A stretch of 28,108 bases of DNA from a virus (Duplodnaviria > Heunggongvirae > Uroviricota > Caudoviricetes), in the IMG/VR virus record IMGVR_UViG_2534682170_000012; one strand, given 5' to 3'. A model generated the notes under the pieces. It saw only the letters and a program-made list of their open reading frames with translations. It had not been told where the DNA came from and made no database searches. Both the position numbers and the translations under genes were made by a program. Shown here piece by piece: positions 1,008 to 28,108 of this stretch. Positions within the stretch are counted from its first letter, which is position 1; each line of letters begins with the position of its first letter.

Positions 1008-1355
1008 TTACTTATCACATAAATCAAATGCAGCCTTAGTGACGTCCCCCAGATTCTTTTTTAACCCAGGGGCGGCATCATTATCTAGCCAAAATGGATT
1101 ATTGTTATCTAACGGTAACGCACCAAATGTTTTACCTTTTATTCGAGCCAAACCTGTAAGCGCATATAACTTATTATCGTCAAAATTCATCACATAAGGA
1201 TTACCATCAAGACACTGCAATTGAACCTCATCTGTATTAAATGGCCATACTCCATTGAAACTCTCACGTTCAATAGTTTTAAAAGGCATTGCGACGGCGG
1301 AAAAAGAAAACATAGATAAAAAAGCAACTAATAGTTGAACCTTTTTTACTTTCAT
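1008..1355 (-). CDS. Small secreted protein of unknown function (signal peptide, two Cys), lysogeny-operon cargo
   Basis: 115 aa; N-terminal MKVKKVQLLVAFLSMFSFSAVA looks like a Sec signal peptide. Sits between the repressor-side genes and int, 5 nt from the int start. Function unknown. Confidence 0.5.
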   Translation of the reverse strand: MKVKKVQLLVAFLSMFSFSAVAMPFKTIERESFNGVWPFNTDEVQLQCLDGNPYVMNFDDNKLYALTGLARIKGKTFGALPLDNNNPFWLDNDAAPGLKKNLGDVTKAAFDLCDK

Positions 1356-1384
1356 GTCATTGCCTCAATTTAGCTCAAGTAAGA

Positions 1385-2035
1385 TTACAAATTAAAAAAC
1401 ATCCTAGAAATGGCTCCGCCTACCAAAACCCCTACGCAGATAAAGAATATTATTTCTTTTGGATAAAATCGGATTAATTCTGAAGCACGAAGGCGGACTT
1501 CTGGTAAGGTCGAATTCTCTGTGTGGCTTGATACCGATTGTTGCTCTAACCACGACAATGCAGACTGTAACTGAGAACGAGTAAGATCGTTTAAACGTCC
1601 TGTACCGAAATTGATATGGCAATACCGCAGAAGTTTTTGTCGAAGTCCACAGTCTTCACTGTTACGTAATAATAAACTTACAAGAGTCTTACAGGCATCA
1701 TGATCTTTACATCGCTCAAGCATTGCATGCAGAAAACTCTCCGCTGTTTTATATTGATTTATTGTCATATCATCAATACCAGCTACACCAATCTCCGCAT
1801 GTACTTTTTGCCAAATAATAAACGCTTCAGTATTGCTAGCTTCTGCAATAGCAGCAACCAAGCTATTTAGCTCCTTACGCTGTGCCTTAAGCAAAGGGCG
1901 AGCGTCATCATCATTATTCGAAGGGATTGCGATATTGACGGTATGAGAACCATCATATCGCTCTATCTGAATATTCTTTTCGTGAAAATCACGCCCAGCA
2001 ACGCGATTGTTTGAACCGTTTGAGTTGACGGCCAT
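1385..2035 (-). CDS. C-terminally membrane-anchored protein of unknown function, lysogeny-operon cargo
   Basis: 216 aa; the only hydrophobic stretch is at the extreme C-terminus (IIFFICVGVLVGGAI). GGAGGGG RBS upstream of the ATG. N-terminal NNRVAGRDFHE motif repeats the repressor C-terminus. Confidence 0.5.
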   Translation of the reverse strand: MAVNSNGSNNRVAGRDFHEKNIQIERYDGSHTVNIAIPSNNDDDARPLLKAQRKELNSLVAAIAEASNTEAFIIWQKVHAEIGVAGIDDMTINQYKTAESFLHAMLERCKDHDACKTLVSLLLRNSEDCGLRQKLLRYCHINFGTGRLNDLTRSQLQSALSWLEQQSVSSHTENSTLPEVRLRASELIRFYPKEIIFFICVGVLVGGAISRMFFNL

Positions 2036-2050
2036 GTCCCCTCCCTACTA

Positions 2051-2455
2051 TCACCTACCCTTAGTTTCGTTATAGTCACGACCAGCGATACGGTTATTAC
2101 CACCAGAAATATTTAACTCACGCCCTGATGGCTGAGTTTCCTTTTCACTGCCCGCACTTTTTAAAGCCCCGATCACCGCGTTTTTTACATCTAACGAAGC
2201 TGCTCGAAAGCGAGTAATCAACTCCTGCTCATCATCGTTATAAGTTTCAGGTGAGTGAATTCCCAACACAACATACTGAACATCAAGGCCAAAACGAGAC
2301 AGCGCTGCCAAATACGCAGCATCAGGAAAGCTATCTCCTTTCTCATATCTAAGCTGAGTTAGCTTTTTGACTCCACCAATTTCGCTCATAGCAACTTGAC
2401 TAAGCCCCAATCTTTCCCTTTCCTCACGCAACCGCTGACCAATATCATTTTTCAT
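2051..2455 (-). CDS. HTH (XRE-type) transcriptional repressor, candidate immunity repressor (P2 C / 186 CI functional analogue)
   Basis: 134 aa; N-terminal IGQRLREERERLGLSQVAMSEIGGVKKLTQLRYEKG fits an XRE helix-turn-helix. First gene of the leftward operon that ends with int, divergent from the early operon. Confidence 0.7.
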   Translation of the reverse strand: MKNDIGQRLREERERLGLSQVAMSEIGGVKKLTQLRYEKGDSFPDAAYLAALSRFGLDVQYVVLGIHSPETYNDDEQELITRFRAASLDVKNAVIGALKSAGSEKETQPSGRELNISGGNNRIAGRDYNETKGR

Positions 2456-4596: not shown

Positions 4597-4986
4597 ATGA
4601 TTGACGCTCATGACTTCACAAGATGGGTGCGCACACAGGACACCCGTCTGGCTCCCGTTCTTCAGGGATTATTTGATCTCTACATCCGTAGTCGTGACAA
4701 CAGAGCACGCACTACAAAACCGGAGAATGCAGACACCCTTTATTTCACAGTAGACGACTGCTACCGCGTGGACTTAACACCACACGGGCTGGCGTTGCGC
4801 TGCCTGACACCGCATGGCGAATCACTGCTGGCGTATTACGACTCCCCGACCTCCGTATTTGCGGCAATGCTGGCGCATCACACTGCTGGCGGGTGTGCCT
4901 CGCTGAGTGAATACACCGCTGAATTTAACCGCCTTTCCACCCTCTTCTCGCAGGAGTGGCAGCGCGTGACGGGATACCAGCCATGA
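4597..4986 (+). CDS. Hypothetical early protein immediately upstream of, and coupled to, the replication gene
   Basis: 129 aa ORF; its stop overlaps the gpA start (ATGA at 4983-4986). Confidence 0.45.
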   Translation: MIDAHDFTRWVRTQDTRLAPVLQGLFDLYIRSRDNRARTTKPENADTLYFTVDDCYRVDLTPHGLALRCLTPHGESLLAYYDSPTSVFAAMLAHHTAGGCASLSEYTAEFNRLSTLFSQEWQRVTGYQP

Positions 4987-7748
4987 GTGAGTTTGCATGG
5001 AGCTGGAATGAACCACGGCCAGCCATTGATCCGGACAGATTTACGGAGCGCAGGCAGGAAACTGAAACCGAGCTGCAACGCGCCATCCGTTACTACCTTG
5101 AGGCGGACAAAAAGGCCCGTAAAGAACAGGAAGCGAAGGAGGAAGCCTTTTTCGCACAATCCACCGTGGGTAAAAAACTCATGGCATCCCTTGAGGAAGC
5201 CGGACAGCGTGAAAAGCTGGCACAAAGCATCATCAGCAAGCGTCAGGCAACAGAACAAGACCCGGTGGCCCGTGCTTTTGCCACACTGAAGGTGCTTCCC
5301 GTTTATCTGCGTGAACCTCTGAGCCGCCACCTCTCTTTCCTGCGCAAAAAACAGGAATCCGATCGTCAGAAAGGCAAAAAGAGCTGGCAGGCTGAACGCT
5401 ACGCGCGCGGAACCCTGCGCAAAATATTCGTACGTCTGGACCGCACCGACAGCCGTTGGCTGACACCGGGTTATCGGTCCCTTGCCGGACGTGAACGCCT
5501 GGACGATTTGCTTTCCCTGCCGCAACTCAACAAACACCAGATACAGACGCTGGCCACCATGACGGCGGCGATGTTCAGCAGCACCTTCGAAAAACTCTGC
5601 GATGGTTTTGGCGCGACCGATGGCGAGCTGACCATGGATGTAACGCTGAAGGCGTATCAGATGCTGGCCCGCATGGCGTTACACTTGCACGCCATGCCTC
5701 CGCATTATGACGCACTGACAACAGACAAAGACCGGAGGAACGAACCGGACACAGAACTGCTGCCGGGCGCAATCCTTCGCCTGACCTGTGCGGAATGGTG
5801 GAAACGCAAACTGTGGCTGTTACGTTGCGAGTGGAGAGAAGAACAACTCCGCGCCGCCTGTCTGGTTTCCAGAAAAACATCGCCCTATTTGAGCCAGGAC
5901 GCGTTAAGCGAGTTTCGCGCACAGCGCGAGAAAACACGCGATTTCCTGAAAAGTTTCATGCTGGAAAACGAAGACGGGTTCACGATTGATCTCGAGACGG
6001 TGTATTACGCGGGAGTAAGTAACCCGGTTCACCGTAAGGCAGAAATGATGGCCACCATGAAGGGGCTGGAACTTCTGGCCGAAGCCCGTGGCGACAAAGC
6101 GGTGTTTCTGACTGTCACCTGCCCGTCAAAATACCACGCCACAACAGAGAACGGTCATCCGAATCCCAAATGGAACGGGGCCACCATGCGCGACTCCAGC
6201 GATTACCTGGTTAACACGTTTTTTGCGGCGGTCCGCAAAAAACTGAACCGCGACGGTCTTCGCTGGTATGGCATCCGCACGGTGGAGCCTCACCATGACG
6301 GCACCGTGCACTGGCATATGATGGTCTTTGCTCATCCGGAAGAAATCGACAGCATCGTGGCCATCACCCGCGATATTGCCATTCAGGAAGACCGCCACGA
6401 GCTGGGCAATGATATTACTCCGCGCTTTAAGGCGGAGTATGTCGACGGCTCAAAAGGCACACCAACCAGCTATATCGCGACCTACATCGGAAAGAACCTG
6501 GACAGCCGCGCCGTGGATGGCATCGACCCGAAAACGGGCAAGCCACGCGTTGACCACGAAACCGGAAAATCAATGGCCGAGAGTGTGGAGCGCGCCATCG
6601 GCTGGGCGCGCCTTCATCGGGTCCGCCAGTTCCAGTTCTTTGGCATCCCCTCCCGTCAGGTGTGGCGTGAACTGCGCCGCCTTGCCAGCCAGATGGCACG
6701 CAACCCGGAAGGCCCGCAACGACTGAAAGATGACGCAATGGATGCGGTACTCGCTGCCGCCGATGCCGGGTGTTTTGCCACCTACATTGAAAAACAGGGC
6801 GGCGTACTTGTTCCACGCAAAGACTACCTGATTCGCACCGCCTACGACCTCGCAGATGAGCTGAATGATTACGGCGAACAGAGCGTACAGATTTACGGGA
6901 TCTGGTCACCACTCATCGGGGAATCCTCCCGTGTGTGCACGCATCCGGATAACTGGAAACTGGTAAGACGTAAACCGGAAACGGAAGACAGCGCCCGCGA
7001 AAATGGTTTTGACCTTCAGGGCGGCCCTGCCGCCCCTTGGACTCGTGGCAATAACTGTCCCCGTGTACAGGAAACGGACAACAACGGGACAGAACAGCCG
7101 GAAGAACGGCCAGCACCGTGGCCGCGGCTTCCTGAAGGCGTTGACGTGAATGAATGGATGCGCTCACTGAAACGGCACGAACGCCGGGCACTGATGCGTT
7201 CGCTGCGTGACAAACAGGCAAAAAACAGCAGTGATGAAATGCAGAACTGGACACAGAGCCGCAAACAGCCACAGCCTTTGCCTGATAACCACGAGTTACT
7301 CGCTAAAGAATGGCGGGAGTCTGCTGAATCTCTCGGCCTGCATATCGGTGAACAGCAGATGCAGCACCTGTTACGAGGCGGCAGTCTGTACGTTGGCGGC
7401 AGCATCATTGCACCGCAGGGATTTGAAATTGTACGCAAACAGGATACCCGCCCGGACAGCCGAATCACGCAGCTCTGGCAACGCCTGAGTCGTAATCACG
7501 GCGTAAGCAGCACGGAGATCCGCCATAACCCGGTCGCCAGCTATCTGGAACAACTAGAGGCATCAGACCCTGAAGCCGCCGCACGCCTGGCATCCACACT
7601 TCAGCAAGACCAGAACACCATGAAAACACCCGTTACCGTACTTTCTGACATGCTGCGCGCCATCCGCGACGCAGAGCACGCACAGAGAATCAGTGAAACC
7701 ACTAAACATGCTCGCAAAAAAATCAGTTTATTGCATCGAACACGATAG
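4983..7748 (+). CDS. A: Rolling-circle replication initiation endonuclease, P2 gpA family
   Basis: VEPHHDGTVHWHMMVF (HUH-type motif) and paired tyrosines YIATYIGKN (Tyr codons at 6471-6473 and 6483-6485) match the remembered P2 gpA active region. Start taken as the ATG at 4983 rather than the ORF-track start at 4956. Confidence 0.88.
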   Translation: MSEFAWSWNEPRPAIDPDRFTERRQETETELQRAIRYYLEADKKARKEQEAKEEAFFAQSTVGKKLMASLEEAGQREKLAQSIISKRQATEQDPVARAFATLKVLPVYLREPLSRHLSFLRKKQESDRQKGKKSWQAERYARGTLRKIFVRLDRTDSRWLTPGYRSLAGRERLDDLLSLPQLNKHQIQTLATMTAAMFSSTFEKLCDGFGATDGELTMDVTLKAYQMLARMALHLHAMPPHYDALTTDKDRRNEPDTELLPGAILRLTCAEWWKRKLWLLRCEWREEQLRAACLVSRKTSPYLSQDALSEFRAQREKTRDFLKSFMLENEDGFTIDLETVYYAGVSNPVHRKAEMMATMKGLELLAEARGDKAVFLTVTCPSKYHATTENGHPNPKWNGATMRDSSDYLVNTFFAAVRKKLNRDGLRWYGIRTVEPHHDGTVHWHMMVFAHPEEIDSIVAITRDIAIQEDRHELGNDITPRFKAEYVDGSKGTPTSYIATYIGKNLDSRAVDGIDPKTGKPRVDHETGKSMAESVERAIGWARLHRVRQFQFFGIPSRQVWRELRRLASQMARNPEGPQRLKDDAMDAVLAAADAGCFATYIEKQGGVLVPRKDYLIRTAYDLADELNDYGEQSVQIYGIWSPLIGESSRVCTHPDNWKLVRRKPETEDSARENGFDLQGGPAAPWTRGNNCPRVQETDNNGTEQPEERPAPWPRLPEGVDVNEWMRSLKRHERRALMRSLRDKQAKNSSDEMQNWTQSRKQPQPLPDNHELLAKEWRESAESLGLHIGEQQMQHLLRGGSLYVGGSIIAPQGFEIVRKQDTRPDSRITQLWQRLSRNHGVSSTEIRHNPVASYLEQLEASDPEAAARLASTLQQDQNTMKTPVTVLSDMLRAIRDAEHAQRISETTKHARKKISLLHRTR

Positions 7749-7793
7749 AAATATAGAGCTAAGGCCGCCCTAGGAATAAGGAGGCCTTGAAAA

Positions 7794-8603
7794 TCAACCT
7801 ATCTTCTTATGAAGTAAAATTAATTTCTGTATTAATTTGGAATGAAACATTGATATATCAGAAATTCTTATTTCATTAGGCGAGTCTATATGATTGGAAA
7901 CTTCTTCCTCCAAGGAGTCACAAATACTTTCTAGATTTTCAATATCTGCATTTAATTCTGGAAAACTATTAAACAAATATAATGAATCCCGTAACTCTCC
8001 TAGTTTTGGTAAAAGAGTATTACTGAATACACTAAGAAACTCCTCTTCTGATAATGCCATGGAGTTTTTAAAACTTTGCACAACATCGAATGCCAACCCA
8101 TTAATTTTAGGCATAATTACTTCTCTTACCCAATACCCTTCATTAATAGCTTCTTTACGTTCTTTTCTATGTTGAACACAAGGAATAACAAAGGATGAAA
8201 CTAAAGCAAATAAAGAGATGCCAATAGAAATCCACTCTGGACCATTTTCCGGAACCTTTACAATATTATATATATCATAGGAATTTGGAACATCTTTGAA
8301 ATAATTAGCAAATAAATCTTTTTTGTTATCCCTTGCCAGAGATAACTTATGAAAGGTGTCGTTTGCCTTTTCACAAAACATCAAGCCATCATTCGGGTTT
8401 CCGGATAACAAAAACGGTGATGATATACCACTAAGTCCTGAATCGGAAATATAAAAAGGCGTGTTTGGATAAAGTGATTCATTACATTCAATGTTTTCTT
8501 TATTGGAAAAATCTGTCACAGAGCAAGCTGCGGGGAATATAAAAAAAATGACAGACAGCGCTGTCATTTTGATTTGAAAAATATTTTTAAAAGAAGGGAA
8601 CAT
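7794..8603 (-). CDS. Cargo gene 3: membrane protein with signal-peptide/lipobox-like N-terminus and one internal TM helix
   Basis: 269 aa, AT-rich. N-terminal hydrophobic segment ends in PAAC; internal hydrophobic helix WISIGISLFALVSSFVIPCV. Start 8603 overlaps gene 2; an alternative ATG is at 8565-8567. Confidence 0.5.
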   Translation of the reverse strand: MFPSFKNIFQIKMTALSVIFFIFPAACSVTDFSNKENIECNESLYPNTPFYISDSGLSGISSPFLLSGNPNDGLMFCEKANDTFHKLSLARDNKKDLFANYFKDVPNSYDIYNIVKVPENGPEWISIGISLFALVSSFVIPCVQHRKERKEAINEGYWVREVIMPKINGLAFDVVQSFKNSMALSEEEFLSVFSNTLLPKLGELRDSLYLFNSFPELNADIENLESICDSLEEEVSNHIDSPNEIRISDISMFHSKLIQKLILLHKKIG

Positions 8604-8931
8604 TTTTATGTAAGCCTCTCCTTACAGCTCTATCTAATTCAGAAAGCATACCTTCTTTATATTCACGACCATCAAGTACAGTGCGACTATAAAATTCGCT
8701 AGGCGAAGAAAATTTCGGCAAAACCGTTTCAAGCATACCTAGAAAGTATGAGCTTGATACAACAATTCCCTTGGGGATCAATAGATATAATCTATCATTA
8801 CTGGTTGTGCAAAATTTCCCTATATTAAAGTAATCATAGGCCTGGCGCCCATTAGAACGTCCAGCAAAAAGTTTCTTGTTACTATCTTTTACTAACTTAT
8901 TGAAATCTATGGTGATGTCAGCCATTTTCAT
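8587..8931 (-). CDS. Cargo gene 2: small STAS-like protein (anti-sigma-factor-antagonist-like)
   Basis: 114 aa; Ser-rich VVSSSYFLG (8737-8763) resembles the phospho-acceptor motif of SpoIIAA/RsbV-type STAS domains, and the size matches. GAGGA RBS; starts 10 nt after the gene 1 stop. Confidence 0.45.
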   Translation of the reverse strand: MKMADITIDFNKLVKDSNKKLFAGRSNGRQAYDYFNIGKFCTTSNDRLYLLIPKGIVVSSSYFLGMLETVLPKFSSPSEFYSRTVLDGREYKEGMLSELDRAVRRGLHKNVPFF

Positions 8932-8941
8932 GTACCTGTCC

Positions 8942-10321
8942 TCAAGTTCGCTGGGTGGCGTTTTCTGGTAGAGGAAAACGAATATTGATCATAACTCCAG
9001 GAAATCGAGCATCCTTCATACGCTTAAGATAGTTGCGATCCGGTTCAGATTCAAGCCCTACATCATTAAAAGGGTAAGTAAAAATGTCACTTTCCTCGTC
9101 ATTAACCAACCTTTGCTTTAATTTATATGATCCATCAAAGTTAATATGAGTACTACCAGATATTAAAGTCATTTTTATCCCACCTTTAATATCTCTTCCC
9201 ATTTTTTTAAGATTATCATGCATATCTTGAAATAACTTCAATAATTCAATTGTTCCGGTGCCAGAACTGTCAGTTTCTTTCTCGTTTTTACAACTCACCC
9301 GCCCTTGCAAGGCCGCTACTGTTGTTAATCCTTCCTTAAACATACCCTTTTTCTTAATATGCTTATTTATGTATGGATTAACTTGTTGACTTAATGAAAA
9401 ATGATCCTCAGGTAAATTATCAAAAGTTTCGCTGATAGTTTTCCCAAAATTGAAAACAGCCAACTCACATATGGGGTTTCGTACGTTATTATTAACAAAA
9501 CCTCTCAAATACCAGCGTGGGCGTTGCTCTAACCCACAATGCCGCTCCGCATTATCAAGGAGTTCCCCCATGCAGGAAGTTAAATGCTTTTCTGCCTCAT
9601 GTACAAGTTTTAAATTATGATCATTTAAGCATTCGTTTATGTATGCGGTAAATTTTTCAGCAGTGACATTTTTTCTGTCATGGGCAAAGGCAGAAGCATT
9701 CTCCTTTCCGATACTATCAGCAGAGAAGATTCGTTTCTTCGGATTCGCTTTTTTCGATGCTTCAGTAGAGTCCAGAACTTTACCTGGTGCAGCATTACTA
9801 ATCTCTTTTACAAGCCCGACATCCCTGATAATTTCAAGATACTGTTCATCTTTAGGGTAGATACCATTAATCTGAATCATCGTATCTTTGAAATTTATAT
9901 TACTTTGCCTTGCTGCTGTAAGAGCAACACCTAATAGACACTCAAGACCAAGACAGTGTTTTTTGTTTTTCTTGTAATCAAAAATATATGATTTCCATTT
10001 ACCTCTTGCAATTAATTTTGTGGCTGCACTAATAAATAGCAGAGATTTCTCTGGATTGTCATATAAGTCAAAATATTTAGGTATTAATATCTTCTCTGCG
10101 TCACGACGAAGAATTGATGAGTCATACTCTTTTATAATCGATATATTTTCAATGAACGTAGCGACTTGGTTTTGGACAGGAGTTGTTTCATCGGAAAAAC
10201 GAAGACTACCATTTTTCTCTTGCGCAGGCTTTTTTTTCTTAGCTCTCTCAACGCTACGAAGAAATCGCAACCATCCACGTAAAAAGGTTCTTTTAGAATC
10301 TTCTTTATTGATTTTTTTCAT
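8942..10321 (-). CDS. Cargo gene 1: large protein with GHKL/anti-sigma-kinase-like ATPase motifs
   Basis: ORF-track frame 8942-10417 begins at a TTG; the first ATG is at 10319-10321 (MKKINKED...). ELLDNAERHCG (9539-9565) resembles the N-box of SpoIIAB/RsbW-type Bergerat ATPases; Gly-rich DSSGTGT (9239-9271) lies downstream. Strongly AT-rich. Confidence 0.5.
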   Translation of the reverse strand: MKKINKEDSKRTFLRGWLRFLRSVERAKKKKPAQEKNGSLRFSDETTPVQNQVATFIENISIIKEYDSSILRRDAEKILIPKYFDLYDNPEKSLLFISAATKLIARGKWKSYIFDYKKNKKHCLGLECLLGVALTAARQSNINFKDTMIQINGIYPKDEQYLEIIRDVGLVKEISNAAPGKVLDSTEASKKANPKKRIFSADSIGKENASAFAHDRKNVTAEKFTAYINECLNDHNLKLVHEAEKHLTSCMGELLDNAERHCGLEQRPRWYLRGFVNNNVRNPICELAVFNFGKTISETFDNLPEDHFSLSQQVNPYINKHIKKKGMFKEGLTTVAALQGRVSCKNEKETDSSGTGTIELLKLFQDMHDNLKKMGRDIKGGIKMTLISGSTHINFDGSYKLKQRLVNDEESDIFTYPFNDVGLESEPDRNYLKRMKDARFPGVMINIRFPLPENATQRT

Positions 10322-10400
10322 TTCCAAATGTTCCTGCAAAGTTAACGTAGCCCACAAGGCGCTAAGTATACTTTCTGCTATATTTTTTTCACTATACAAA

Positions 10401-10428
10401 TGCACAATAGTGCACAAATTTGCACAAT
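10401..10428. repeat. Three direct TGCACAA repeats at 10-bp phasing upstream of the cargo operon; a fourth copy at 10493-10499
   Basis: TGCACAA at 10401, 10411 and 10421, read directly. Possible operator or packaging-recognition element. Confidence 0.3.
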
Positions 10429-10800
10429 TTTTTTGAACGACTTTTTGCCCTTCCGGCCCGCATGGTGGCTGGATCCGTCAAGGATCCGTGCGTGCACAAA
10501 AAAACGCATTTTTTCTGCGCGCAGGTGACGGGGGAACAGCCCGCGTTTCAGGGGGTAAATAGCATCCCCTGAACGATGTCGCAGCGACACAACAGAATGG
10601 CTGTATTTCTCACGCTGAGCGTGAAAAAGACGTGAGGGCTTTTGATTTGATGGGGTGAAAGGTAAGGCCGTCAAAATCGCACTGAGACGGCGAGAACATG
10701 CAGTCAACGCGGTGGGATTGCGTAAGAGTCTGACTGTCGATGATGGCAATCAGCAGGAAAGCGTCGTGAAATTATCTGACTGATACAGGAGCTGGAGAGT

Positions 10801-10851: not shown

Positions 10852-11898
10852 TCAGGATGTGGGCTGGGTGTCTAACAGTGCGTAAGGGTTAAAGCGGATC
10901 ACCTCTTCGCCAAGCCAGTCATTGATGTGCTTCATGGCCTCCATGACGGGCATCAGCTCGTTAATTGCGTAAACCCGCGCGGCCTTCTCCACATCACCAA
11001 ACGCACTTTTTTCGCCCGGCATCGCCCCCATCAGTTGCGGCGGAACGCGGTGCGCAGCCAGCACATCATCACGGGATGCCGCCTTAACATTCATGAACTC
11101 ATCTTTTGCGGTGATCTGCTGGAACGGCAAAATTTGCACCCCTTCTTTGCCCCCGTTGGGCGCATGAATGAGCACGTTTTTAAATGCACCACCACCACGC
11201 GCACCCTGTAACGTTTCTTTCAGGGAGTCCATGCTTTCGCGGTTTACCTGCGCTGCACCGATGTAGATGATGCACCCGGCGTGGGATCCGTTGTCGTAGT
11301 ACAGTTTTCTGAACATGTCCGCCGAATGAGAAAGGCTGGCCGAGAGTAATGCGCCAAGATATTCCGGCATGCCGTAGATTTCCTGGTTAATATCCGGATT
11401 CATCAGGTGGCACACTTTGCCAGGGCGAAACTGGAACGCGTCCTTGCCATCCTGCACATACCACCATGATTCAAGATCGCTTCCGCGTCGCATGTATTTC
11501 GCCAGGGCGTGCCGTAATTTAAGCGGTTCGCCGAGCATATTGCTCCGAAGCTCAAGGAATGCGTTACCGAACACAAACCAGTCCAGCGCCAGCGCCGAGA
11601 AATCCTGCCGGGAAAGCAGCGGGTGCGGGATGTAGCAACCGAGTAATACATTGCGCTTAAAGTAAAGCGCAGACTGATGCCAGGACGTTTGCCGGGCGGC
11701 TCTTGCCAGACCGTACCAGTCCACCGGGGTTTCATACCACCGCCCGTTATCAGCACAGTACATATTGTCCAGCAGGTCATGCCCGGTCAGGCGATAAGGA
11801 CCATCAAATGTGAATGCACTGAGCGATGATTCTTTCCTGAGCGCATCAGCGAGATCAATGCGTGAACTCATGCGCACTTTTTTATTTTTTCTGCTCAT
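10852..11898 (-). CDS. Q: Portal protein, P2 gpQ family
   Basis: 348 aa; size, position and orientation (convergent with the cargo operon, upstream partner of the terminase) as in P2. Confidence 0.85.
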   Translation of the reverse strand: MSRKNKKVRMSSRIDLADALRKESSLSAFTFDGPYRLTGHDLLDNMYCADNGRWYETPVDWYGLARAARQTSWHQSALYFKRNVLLGCYIPHPLLSRQDFSALALDWFVFGNAFLELRSNMLGEPLKLRHALAKYMRRGSDLESWWYVQDGKDAFQFRPGKVCHLMNPDINQEIYGMPEYLGALLSASLSHSADMFRKLYYDNGSHAGCIIYIGAAQVNRESMDSLKETLQGARGGGAFKNVLIHAPNGGKEGVQILPFQQITAKDEFMNVKAASRDDVLAAHRVPPQLMGAMPGEKSAFGDVEKAARVYAINELMPVMEAMKHINDWLGEEVIRFNPYALLDTQPTS

Positions 11899-26776: not shown

Positions 26777-28108
26777 TTATTTTGAGTGAGTTATCACCTT
26801 GTTTTTTCCGGTTCTTTTGGCTTGATATAACGCTTTATCGGCATTGACTAACATTTCAGATGGACTGAGATTATTCTCTTTTGAAGTAAAGCAACCAATA
26901 CTGACAGTTATTTTCTCAGGTCCATGCGATAATAATTTTTCCGAGCATTGCTCTTCAATGTTTTTTCTGATTCGCTCTGCAATTGATAGCAAGAGCTTTT
27001 GAGTATTACCTTTAATGATAATACCGAACTCCTCACCGCCTAAGCGCCCTAATATATCCTCTTTCCTGATGGATTTTTTTATTATTCTGGTAACCATTAC
27101 TATGACTTGATCACCCATATGATGCCCCCATTTGTCATTGATGCTTTTGAAATTGTCAATATCTAACATTATTACTGAGAAATCATGGTGTTTTGATATA
27201 TTCTTCAATGAGTCAATAAAGTATCTTCTATTGTATGTATTCGTTAGTGGATCATGAATTGCCATATGATTAGCATGATTTAATTTCCTGAAAACATAAT
27301 ACATGAGTGTTGAAATGATATAAATCATTGATATCAATTCAAGAAATTTTGTCATGTACCATGCAGGATGGGATTTATCAATAAAATACAATAAAATTAG
27401 ATTATTGCATACTGACACTATACTAATAAGTATTATACACAACCATATTTTTGAGTAATTACGTATGCTGATGCATGAGCTGATAAGTAATACAAGCCAA
27501 AATACTGATATTATTTTGGTGTACACGATATTCCACGTCGGCAAATGACGATTCAGCGAGTATTGTATAATATTAAGACTATATTTTATATTGTCACTGC
27601 TTAGATTTTTTGCTACAAACGGAGTAATAAAAAGAATTAATATTGACAAAACAACAATTATTATGTTTCTTTTATCTTCTAAAACACTTTTGTTTTTAAC
27701 ATTGGTGGAATAAACAGCCAGAAAGATTATAGATATAAAGCTGAACTGACGGAATAGATAATATATTGCGATATCATTTGATTTCTGATAGATTGTAGAT
27801 AAATCGTTACCTAACGGAGATAAAGAAATAATAGCCACTTCTAATAAATAATACGTGTTGCTCAAAAACGCGAATGAAAGAATTAAGAGATAACTTTGTC
27901 TCTGATTAGAAACATAGTAAAGCAATAGAAAAATAAAAATCATCAGGTTTATGAAAAAAAGCCCAATAATGAAAACACTATAACTTATTTGTGTTGTTTG
28001 TGTTATGTATATTCCATTATTTGCATGCAGTAACAAAAATATAATAGAGATGCATGAAAATAAAAAGATGAAGATTTTTATTTTTATAGGTACCTGGTTG
28101 ATAATCAT
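26777..28108 (-). CDS. Membrane-bound diguanylate cyclase: multi-pass N-terminal membrane domain plus GGDEF domain (YcdT/DgcT-like architecture)
   Basis: C-terminal GGDEF domain with HDPLTNTYNRRYF, RLGGEEFGIII (GGEEF active-site motif) and DKALYQAKRTGKNKV. N-terminal half is highly hydrophobic and AT-rich. The ORF start codon is the last 3 nt of the window, so the true start may lie beyond it. Confidence 0.8.
   Translation of the reverse strand: MIINQVPIKIKIFIFLFSCISIIFLLLHANNGIYITQTTQISYSVFIIGLFFINLMIFIFLLLYYVSNQRQSYLLILSFAFLSNTYYLLEVAIISLSPLGNDLSTIYQKSNDIAIYYLFRQFSFISIIFLAVYSTNVKNKSVLEDKRNIIIVVLSILILFITPFVAKNLSSDNIKYSLNIIQYSLNRHLPTWNIVYTKIISVFWLVLLISSCISIRNYSKIWLCIILISIVSVCNNLILLYFIDKSHPAWYMTKFLELISMIYIISTLMYYVFRKLNHANHMAIHDPLTNTYNRRYFIDSLKNISKHHDFSVIMLDIDNFKSINDKWGHHMGDQVIVMVTRIIKKSIRKEDILGRLGGEEFGIIIKGNTQKLLLSIAERIRKNIEEQCSEKLLSHGPEKITVSIGCFTSKENNLSPSEMLVNADKALYQAKRTGKNKVITHSK

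Follow-up and report, generated by a model that had tools for sequence, protein, structure and literature searches.

We analyzed a 28,108-nt stretch of DNA, a P2-like prophage of Escherichia coli (IMG/VR record IMGVR_UViG_2534682170_000012; the whole stretch is hereafter called the window), with a focus on three minus-strand cargo genes, here named genes A, B and C, that lie between the replication gene (gpA) and the portal gene Q. The predicted products are a kinase with its own STAS-like domain (A), a small STAS-like protein (B) and a membrane protein (C). With a probability that we put at roughly 0.45, the trio is a phosphorylation-regulated anti-phage module of the abortive-infection or toxin-antitoxin type, following the logic of the VapKSC system. 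The trio has been catalogued before and predicted to be defensive by machine learning; what we read as new is a kinase-STAS switch that has a membrane protein as its third component.

Location and organization of the three-gene cassette

The gene gpA (4956–7748, plus strand) ends at 7748 and Q (10852–11898, minus strand) has its stop at 10852, in agreement with an earlier note made from the sequence alone. Between them are three minus-strand open reading frames (ORFs), at 8942–10417 (TTG start, 491 aa), 8587–8931 (114 aa) and 7794–8603 (269 aa). The gap from the gene A stop (8942) to the first ATG of gene B (8931) is 10 nt, and genes B and C overlap by 17 nt (8587–8603), exactly as the earlier note had counted. 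The visible AT-richness described there was also reproduced, since the G+C content of the insert was 0.350 overall and 0.36, 0.36 and 0.32 in genes A, B and C, respectively, compared with 0.54–0.565 in the flanks (0.565 in gpA and 0.539 in Q plus P). The assignment of the slot as gpA-cargo-Q was taken from the annotation of the genome with an exact match. Similarity to other P2-like phages stopped at 7707 on the left and resumed at about 10400 on the right, and the exchangeable segment is therefore placed at about 7708–10400, where both the drop in G+C content and the loss of similarity mark a variable cargo segment of the P2 A-Q hotspot. The operon had been given as 7794–10436; its gene ends stood, but the variable segment is better described by the limits above, and gene A starts at 10321. 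Note that the last 41 nt of gpA (7708–7748; 13 codons) are unlike those of other P2-like phages, so that the left recombination boundary of the hotspot lies inside gpA.

The true start of gene A is almost certainly the ATG at 10321, as used in RefSeq (8942–10321, minus strand; 459 aa, WP_000723541.1). The 491-aa version was rejected because its TTG at 10417 falls within an upstream TTGTGCA repeat and is not credible as a start. TTGTGCA occurs three times without mismatch as a direct repeat of 10-bp period (10427–10421, 10417–10411 and 10407–10401, minus strand), followed by a degenerate TTGTATA (10399–10393); the repeats stand at the junction of cargo and backbone, on the backbone side that is conserved among P2-like phages, and could serve as an operator, a promoter element or a recombination hotspot sequence. 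The region upstream of gene A (10322–10440, minus strand) also has promoter-like −10 elements. A promoter scan 5′ of gene A returned 8 candidates against 9.4 expected, which is not above chance, and we therefore claim no specific promoter for this gene. Within the operon, a AAGGAGAGG Shine-Dalgarno sequence lies just 5′ of the ATG of gene C, inside the end of gene B, and this arrangement together with the overlap indicates that B and C are probably translationally coupled. Just 3′ of gene C there is a terminator-like hairpin (7754–7773, minus strand); a scan with the terminator consensus gave 9 sites in the region, compared with 2.1 ± 1.8 expected.

The start of gene B differs between annotations. 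RefSeq takes the second ATG, 2 codons later (8926–8931), which gives a 112-aa protein (WP_000763711.1). The first ATG is preceded by a better-placed GAGGA Shine-Dalgarno sequence, and the MKM/MNM N-terminus that it encodes is conserved in the family.

Distribution and conservation of the trio

The full 3.2-kb query was present in 23 of 5,426 complete E. coli genomes, whereas the flanks were found in about 1,142, which excludes that the three genes are core genes of most P2-like phages. In all 23 genomes the products are annotated as hypothetical protein, three times over. Among 5.8 billion sequences, the families of A, B and C comprised 59, 41 and 21 clusters, respectively, and no named protein or Pfam domain was found in them. 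A tblastn search of 50,697 phage records gave no relatives of A or B, so that the trio is not known from any isolated phage.

In every context examined the gene order was A-B-C. The Klebsiella copy is in a P2-like prophage and again occupies the slot between the portal gene and gpA, which, along with the genome counts and the published tables considered below, bears out the proposal that the trio is variable cargo of the P2 tin/old locus. The Aeromonas veronii copy is in a lambdoid prophage next to methylase, HNH/SRA and NERD genes, and that of Vibrio parahaemolyticus adjoins a type I restriction-modification HsdR gene and AAA_15 genes. The copies of Pantoea, Salinivibrio and Spirosoma (Bacteroidota) are on plasmids, the last with an A identity of only 24.5%; copies on chromosomal islands outside prophages were also found. 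Searches with local family hidden Markov models showed that the second gene is B-like in all of these diverged loci and that the third gene is C-like in all but Spirosoma, where it encodes one transmembrane (TM) helix and then a helical tail. Since each ORF has a conserved family and the three-gene order is kept across genera, the ORFs are genuine and not due to chance. Judged by these sequence comparisons, the trio is a self-contained, horizontally mobile unit kept from Enterobacterales to Bacteroidota.

Previous cataloguing and searches of defence libraries

The trio WP_000723541, WP_000763711 and WP_001548207 has dozens of entries in Table S5A of Rousset et al. (2022; PMC9122126), and Table S5B of the same study lists it as P2-hotspot system #19, “HATPase_c | DUF4325”, with 155 occurrences and the remark “1 TM in protein 3”. 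The listed proteins are those of the window, except that C of the listed representative differs at two residues. The entry is one of a catalogue with HHpred labels, without a name or a mechanism. DefensePredictor (2026; PMC13092281) classified B as “Predicted novel defense gene” with a mean log-odds of 7.46; B is not among the validated systems in the main text of that paper. A full-text literature search on the accessions of the trio returned no further paper and no report of the trio being tested. The earlier note had called the module undescribed, and this stands insofar as it is unnamed, but not otherwise, given the catalogue entry, the DefensePredictor call and the known VapKSC analogue. 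That it is not a named defence system agrees with our scans, in which the PADLOC, Pfam and NCBIfam models gave no match: the three proteins were without a match in PADLOC-DB v2.0.0, and scans of all 45 A-family proteins and of 80 from the wider B family gave only single marginal ones.

Another system of the same hotspot, Rst_3HP (“hp + hp + hp”, pFR109), also consists of three genes for hypothetical proteins and was validated against phage P1 (PMC9122126). Identity with the trio was rejected because the Rst_3HP proteins are unrelated in sequence (they begin MGGETSAIQR, MAKKLYFATD and MKKVKWLKLN).

Predicted architecture of protein A

An AlphaFold2 model of A built with 45 homologues had a predicted local distance difference test score (pLDDT) of 81.8 and a predicted template modeling score of 0.81. 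According to this model, A is a fusion of a basic N-terminal helix (aa 1–35, with 13 Lys or Arg in 35 residues), a STAS-like domain (aa ~41–205; 9707–10201, minus strand) and a GHKL (Bergerat-fold) kinase domain similar to SpoIIAB and RsbW (aa ~206–459; 8945–9706, minus strand). The structurally nearest proteins were anti-sigma factors that bind and inhibit sigma factors. The model thus upholds the description of A as a large protein with GHKL/anti-sigma-kinase-like motifs, which had missed the internal STAS-like domain. In sequence scans, Pfam, NCBIfam and PADLOC gave no significant match, PHROGs gave only phrog_3364 (unknown function), and a PDB profile search with A gave nothing.

Residues E253, N257 and H261 of the N box and G354-x-G356-T of the G2 box are invariant in the A family. 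GHKL ATPases normally have an adenine-binding Asp at the G1 position. The G1 box of A reads F-N291-x-G293 throughout the family, Spirosoma included (the codons for N291-F-G293 are at 9445–9453). An alignment of the A and B families, weak in itself (E 0.12), placed the invariant E127 and G131 of A opposite S61 and G65 of B, which suggests, speculatively, that E127 is a fixed phosphomimetic residue at the acceptor position of A’s own STAS domain. This site could be a pseudo-product built into the kinase and displaced when A is activated.

Protein B as a predicted phospho-acceptor

Gene B (8587–8931, minus strand) encodes a divergent STAS-like protein of 114 aa, close to the size of roughly 110 aa noted before. 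DUF4325 is defined as a “STAS-like domain of unknown function”. A direct Pfam scan of B gave no match. A search with the wide B profile retrieved 121 cluster representatives among 1.84 billion, and of the 80 of these that were scanned against Pfam, 4 were DUF4325 (best E 3.7e-8) and no other family recurred. The HHpred label of B in Rousset et al. (2022; PMC9122126) is likewise DUF4325. Together with the register of its alignments with VapS described below, this transitive link supports the earlier assignment of B as STAS-like, and we accordingly describe it as STAS-like/DUF4325 at the sequence level. In the PDB, the best profile match was the STAS protein TM1081 at a nonsignificant E of 0.42; in that alignment the segment VSSSYFLG of B falls on the STAS phospho-serine motif DSFSLG, with S61 on the serine of DS. 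The structure model of B had a pLDDT of 89.8.

Invariant in the B family are LFAGRxNG and S59-S60-S61-Y-x-x-G65; the wider family keeps G24 and G65 without exception, and G28 and S61 in at least 90% of its members. The distance of four residues from S61 to G65 equals that from S58 to G62 of SpoIIAA. The codons of Ser60 and Ser61 (8749–8754, minus strand) mark the candidate phosphorylation site by alignment with S48 of VapS, and B is thus predicted to be a phospho-acceptor and regulator.

Remote relatives of the B domain were also seen on three metagenome contigs (L010–L012) that are very AT-rich and rich in ankyrin repeats, in one case fused to an N-terminal extension. No GHKL kinase gene adjoined the B-like gene there, so that the B/DUF4325-like domain is also used outside kinase operons; these contexts are uninformative for the trio.

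Membrane topology and conservation of protein C

Gene C (7794–8603, minus strand) encodes a protein of 269 aa (WP_001548207.1), the predicted effector. It begins with a near-invariant lipoprotein-type signal (aa 1–27) that ends in Cys27 (…FPTAC27S), followed by a variable periplasmic segment (aa 28–110), a strongly conserved PESGPEW motif, a TM helix (aa 123–143; 8175–8237, minus strand) that is conserved in the family, a juxtamembrane motif, KERKEAINEGYWIREVIMPK, and a conserved helical cytoplasmic domain (aa 144–269). In a Kyte-Doolittle analysis with a 19-aa window, the maximum of 2.26 was at aa 122–145; hydropathy and the family alignment both agree with the view of the third protein as a membrane protein. 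Conservation, expressed as majority fraction, was 0.44 in the periplasmic segment versus 0.75–0.87 in the TM and juxtamembrane parts, the motif itself reaching 0.87. The length of the periplasmic part varied from about 110 aa to almost none in Pantoea and Spirosoma, so that the conserved core of C consists of the TM helix and the cytoplasmic part. This pattern points to a core function of C at or inside the membrane. Searches of Pfam, NCBIfam, PHROGs and PDB found no relative of C, and in PADLOC nothing better than PDC-S02 (E 0.031) came up.

The 5′ coding region of gene C holds a hairpin with a 10-bp stem (AAAATGACAG-CGCTGT-CTGTCATTTT; 8545–8570, minus strand) that spans the Met13 codon, and two members of the C family begin at the equivalent of Met13. 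The hairpin might modulate C translation or mark an alternative start.

Comparison with kinase-STAS systems

The closest characterized system is VapKSC, which consists of VapK (STAS plus GHKL, 302 aa), the STAS antitoxin VapS (116 aa, phosphorylated at S48) and the PIN toxin VapC, and which protects by about 2 logs against phage Bas42, with kinase, Ser and toxin all required (Chambers et al., EMBO J 2026; PMC13373217). In the related CapK/CapS pair, a single-stranded DNA (ssDNA)-activated helix-turn-helix-STAS-GHKL kinase phosphorylates a conserved Ser of a STAS-winged helix-turn-helix (wHTH) repressor, and for both CapK and VapK the cue is ssDNA bound between the STAS and kinase domains (PMC13373217).

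For the comparison, VapK and VapS sequences were taken from the deposited model of Chambers et al., and VapS was checked against PDB 9Z7O (E 3e-71). VapS matched DUF4325 in Pfam (E 2.7e-17), and VapK matched HATPase_c (E 8.5e-5). With hhalign, the A family aligned weakly with VapK (E 0.15), with the N boxes (ELLDNAERH in A, EIYANSFEH in VapK) and G1 boxes (FNFGKTI and VDFGVGI) in register. The B family aligned with VapS at a similarly weak E of 0.098 and the wide B profile at 0.0096 over 58 columns, and S60 of B fell on S48 of VapS in all of these alignments. A search for relatives of VapK gave only 2 plasmid matches in the collections searched.

The likeness extends to gene order, as both systems encode a STAS-GHKL kinase, then a small protein of about 115 aa with a conserved Ser (DUF4325/STAS in VapS, DUF4325/STAS-like by sequence in B), and then an effector (in the trio, a predicted one); both are on mobile or defence-associated DNA, and in both the second gene overlaps or adjoins the third. 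On the other hand, VapC is a cytoplasmic PIN nuclease, whereas C is a protein with a lipoprotein signal and a TM helix that has neither PIN nor any other Pfam domain. In addition, A is longer than VapK (459 versus 302 aa) owing to its basic N-terminal helix and larger STAS region, and the G1 box has Asp in VapK and Asn in A. Activation by ssDNA and the antitoxin function are shown or supported for VapKSC, whereas the trio is known here from sequence. Because its third gene is unlike VapC, we do not class the trio with VapKSC; we do think, by analogy, that it works like VapKSC despite this difference.

Similar comparisons apply to other systems. CapK-CapS, which is associated with immune operons, shares with the trio a STAS-GHKL kinase and a conserved Ser on a STAS-like protein, and would share an infection or DNA-damage cue; however, CapS is a wHTH repressor of the downstream operon, whereas B lacks a DNA-binding domain and the output of the trio would be the co-encoded membrane protein. 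SpoIIAB-SpoIIAA and RsbW-RsbV likewise pair a GHKL anti-sigma-type serine kinase with a STAS antagonist, to which B is likened by sequence, but the kinase of the trio carries a STAS domain in the same polypeptide, and a membrane protein is the third component. No PP2C or sigma-factor domains were found in the three cargo genes, and the diverged loci likewise hold only the trio. The earlier reading as partner switching thus fails in its classical sense, and a phospho-regulated toxin-antitoxin switch appears to be the better analogy.

Kinase-STAS pairs were also seen in other phages. The P2-like Burkholderia phage vB_E188 (L013, 4501–5708) encodes a VapK-like kinase and then a small VapS-like protein in the interval between integrase and portal genes, next to BrnTA, and in Marinitoga phage MPV1 (L014, 2911–4264) a VapK-like kinase is directly followed by a small VapS-like protein. 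Both are two-gene cargo beside integrase or portal genes of temperate phages, and such pairs therefore seem to be recurrent phage accessory genes. Furthermore, a table in the report on Francisella phage vB_FhiM_KIRK lists three consecutive genes (Fhv_0046–0048) near a cI repressor and an integrase, for a hypothetical protein of 293 aa, a DUF4325 protein of 112 aa and a TM protein of 125 aa (PMC7924643). These three genes may be a second, compact kinase-STAS-membrane trio.

Proposed mechanism and alternative explanations

In the mechanism that we favor, A would be a cytoplasmic serine kinase of the SpoIIAB/RsbW/CapK type with STAS and GHKL domains. Made together with C through translational coupling, B would sit on the cytoplasmic domain of inner-membrane C in the resting lysogen, with C inactive. 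A superinfecting phage would give the cue, on which A would phosphorylate B at Ser60 or Ser61; phosphorylated B would release C, and the freed C would damage or depolarize the inner membrane, so that the infected cell and the phage are stopped. We propose this switch because of the VapKSC precedent, the gene order and a B/C overlap typical of antitoxin-toxin pairs, and because the B serines and the catalytic Asn and Glu of A are invariant and the conservation of C is concentrated in its TM and cytoplasmic parts. The defensive role is proposed because the trio is variable cargo of the P2 slot, has defence genes as neighbors (restriction-modification, AAA_15, HNH and NERD) and includes a protein called by DefensePredictor.

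Several points weigh against this mechanism. Compared directly, A and B resemble VapK and VapS only weakly in sequence, if in consistent register, and the B profile did not retrieve VapS (9Z7O) from the PDB; structure searches with the B model gave no significant match, and the likeness of B to STAS proteins is one of sequence. The Asn in place of Asp in the G1 box of A could mean that ATP binding or kinase activity is altered or lost, or that A is a pseudokinase, and the cassette encodes no phosphatase to reset the switch. C resembled no known pore-former or toxin in the searches listed above, and its variable periplasmic domain could equally mark it as a sensor. Moreover, the sequences of the trio are absent from the Rousset tables of cloned, validated or tested systems.

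A bolder version of the same idea, which we hold only tentatively, is that the trio is the founding membrane-effector branch of the CapK/VapK switches, an ancient mobile unit in which A, with a phosphomimetic Glu in its own STAS domain and an Asn G1 box, phosphorylates B to unleash C, a lipid-anchored inner-membrane effector, in response to a cue that is perhaps not ssDNA.

The strongest competitor, which we nevertheless regard as unlikely, reverses the roles, so that C would sense phage adsorption, DNA injection or envelope damage with its variable, lipid-anchored periplasmic domain and signal through its cytoplasmic domain to A and B, A would be the effector (either a kinase of host or phage proteins or, like SpoIIAB and RsbW, a protein that sequesters a transcription factor), and B would be the antagonist. 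The periplasmic segment is the least conserved part of C, as if tracking phage diversity, A is structurally nearest to sigma-binding anti-sigma factors, and its basic N-terminal helix and large STAS domain could dock on C or on a target. However, the near absence of the periplasmic segment in Pantoea and Spirosoma, where the trio is otherwise kept, means that it cannot be the essential sensor; neither a sigma factor nor another obvious target is encoded in the cassette, and in CapK and VapK the kinase itself senses (PMC13373217).

It is less probable still that the trio has no direct anti-phage role and is instead an addiction module acting by post-segregational killing or a lysogenic-conversion module, serving prophage stabilization or host envelope and stress signaling. 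Partner-switching modules such as RsbW/RsbV and SypE/SypA classically control stress responses and biofilm formation, which would suit such a role, as would the antitoxin-toxin-like layout of B and C and the persistence of the cassette in a prophage that may be a truncated remnant. Against this, diverged copies adjoin defence genes, the slot is strongly enriched for validated defence systems (PMC9122126), machine learning predicts defence (PMC13092281), and VapKSC itself defends against phage (PMC13373217).

Superinfection exclusion, in which inner-membrane C blocks entry of phage genomes while A and B only tune it, fits a prophage-encoded inner-membrane protein with a lipoprotein signal and a TM helix as well as a slot whose cargo acts on competing phages (PMC9122126), but we consider it improbable because known exclusion proteins usually work alone, without a kinase/STAS pair, because the most conserved part of C is cytoplasmic, and because the trio also occurs on plasmids and chromosomal islands outside prophages. 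Equally doubtful is that A is a pseudokinase or nucleotide sensor that regulates B and C by binding alone, as partner switching without phosphorylation: the family-wide N291, Spirosoma included, and, weakly, the invariant Glu at the phospho-site position of A’s STAS domain speak for it, whereas the invariant B serines and the invariant Mg-binding Asn257, Glu253 and G2 glycine loop, which indicate that nucleotide chemistry is probably retained, speak against it.

Implications of the proposed phospho-switch

If the proposed switch is correct, the kinase-STAS phospho-switch of CapK/CapS and VapKSC would be a modular sensor to which not only a repressor or a nuclease but also a membrane effector can be coupled, extending the theme of a shared sensor with swapped effectors in bacterial immunity. 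One of the twenty cargo types most often met in the E. coli P2 hotspot, with 155 loci in the Rousset survey, would thereby gain a function, and C would represent a new family of regulated membrane effectors without known relatives. The trio is frequent enough among E. coli P2 prophages to be of consequence, and it is conserved across phyla. The atypical G1 box of A and the Glu in its STAS domain would be simple starting points for learning what restrains such kinases in the absence of infection.

Other features of the window

The integrase gene (1–1002) is followed by the early genes, and beyond Q there are terminase, capsid, lysis, tail and tail-fibre genes. Between the integrase and the early genes is a second AT-rich patch (1008–2455, minus strand; G+C content 0.38) that encodes a DUF2511 protein (115 aa), a 216-aa protein without a family and a 134-aa repressor-like protein with a helix-turn-helix; this patch, too, may be a site for accessory genes. 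The genes for the tail fibre and its assembly protein are followed directly by a very AT-rich gene for a diguanylate cyclase with MASE4 and GGDEF domains (26777–28108, minus strand; G+C content about 0.29), and tail sheath, tube and tape-measure genes do not follow within the window. The prophage may be truncated or rearranged near this position, or the window may enter host DNA there; the junction at the diguanylate cyclase gene is common to 20 of the 5,426 E. coli genomes.

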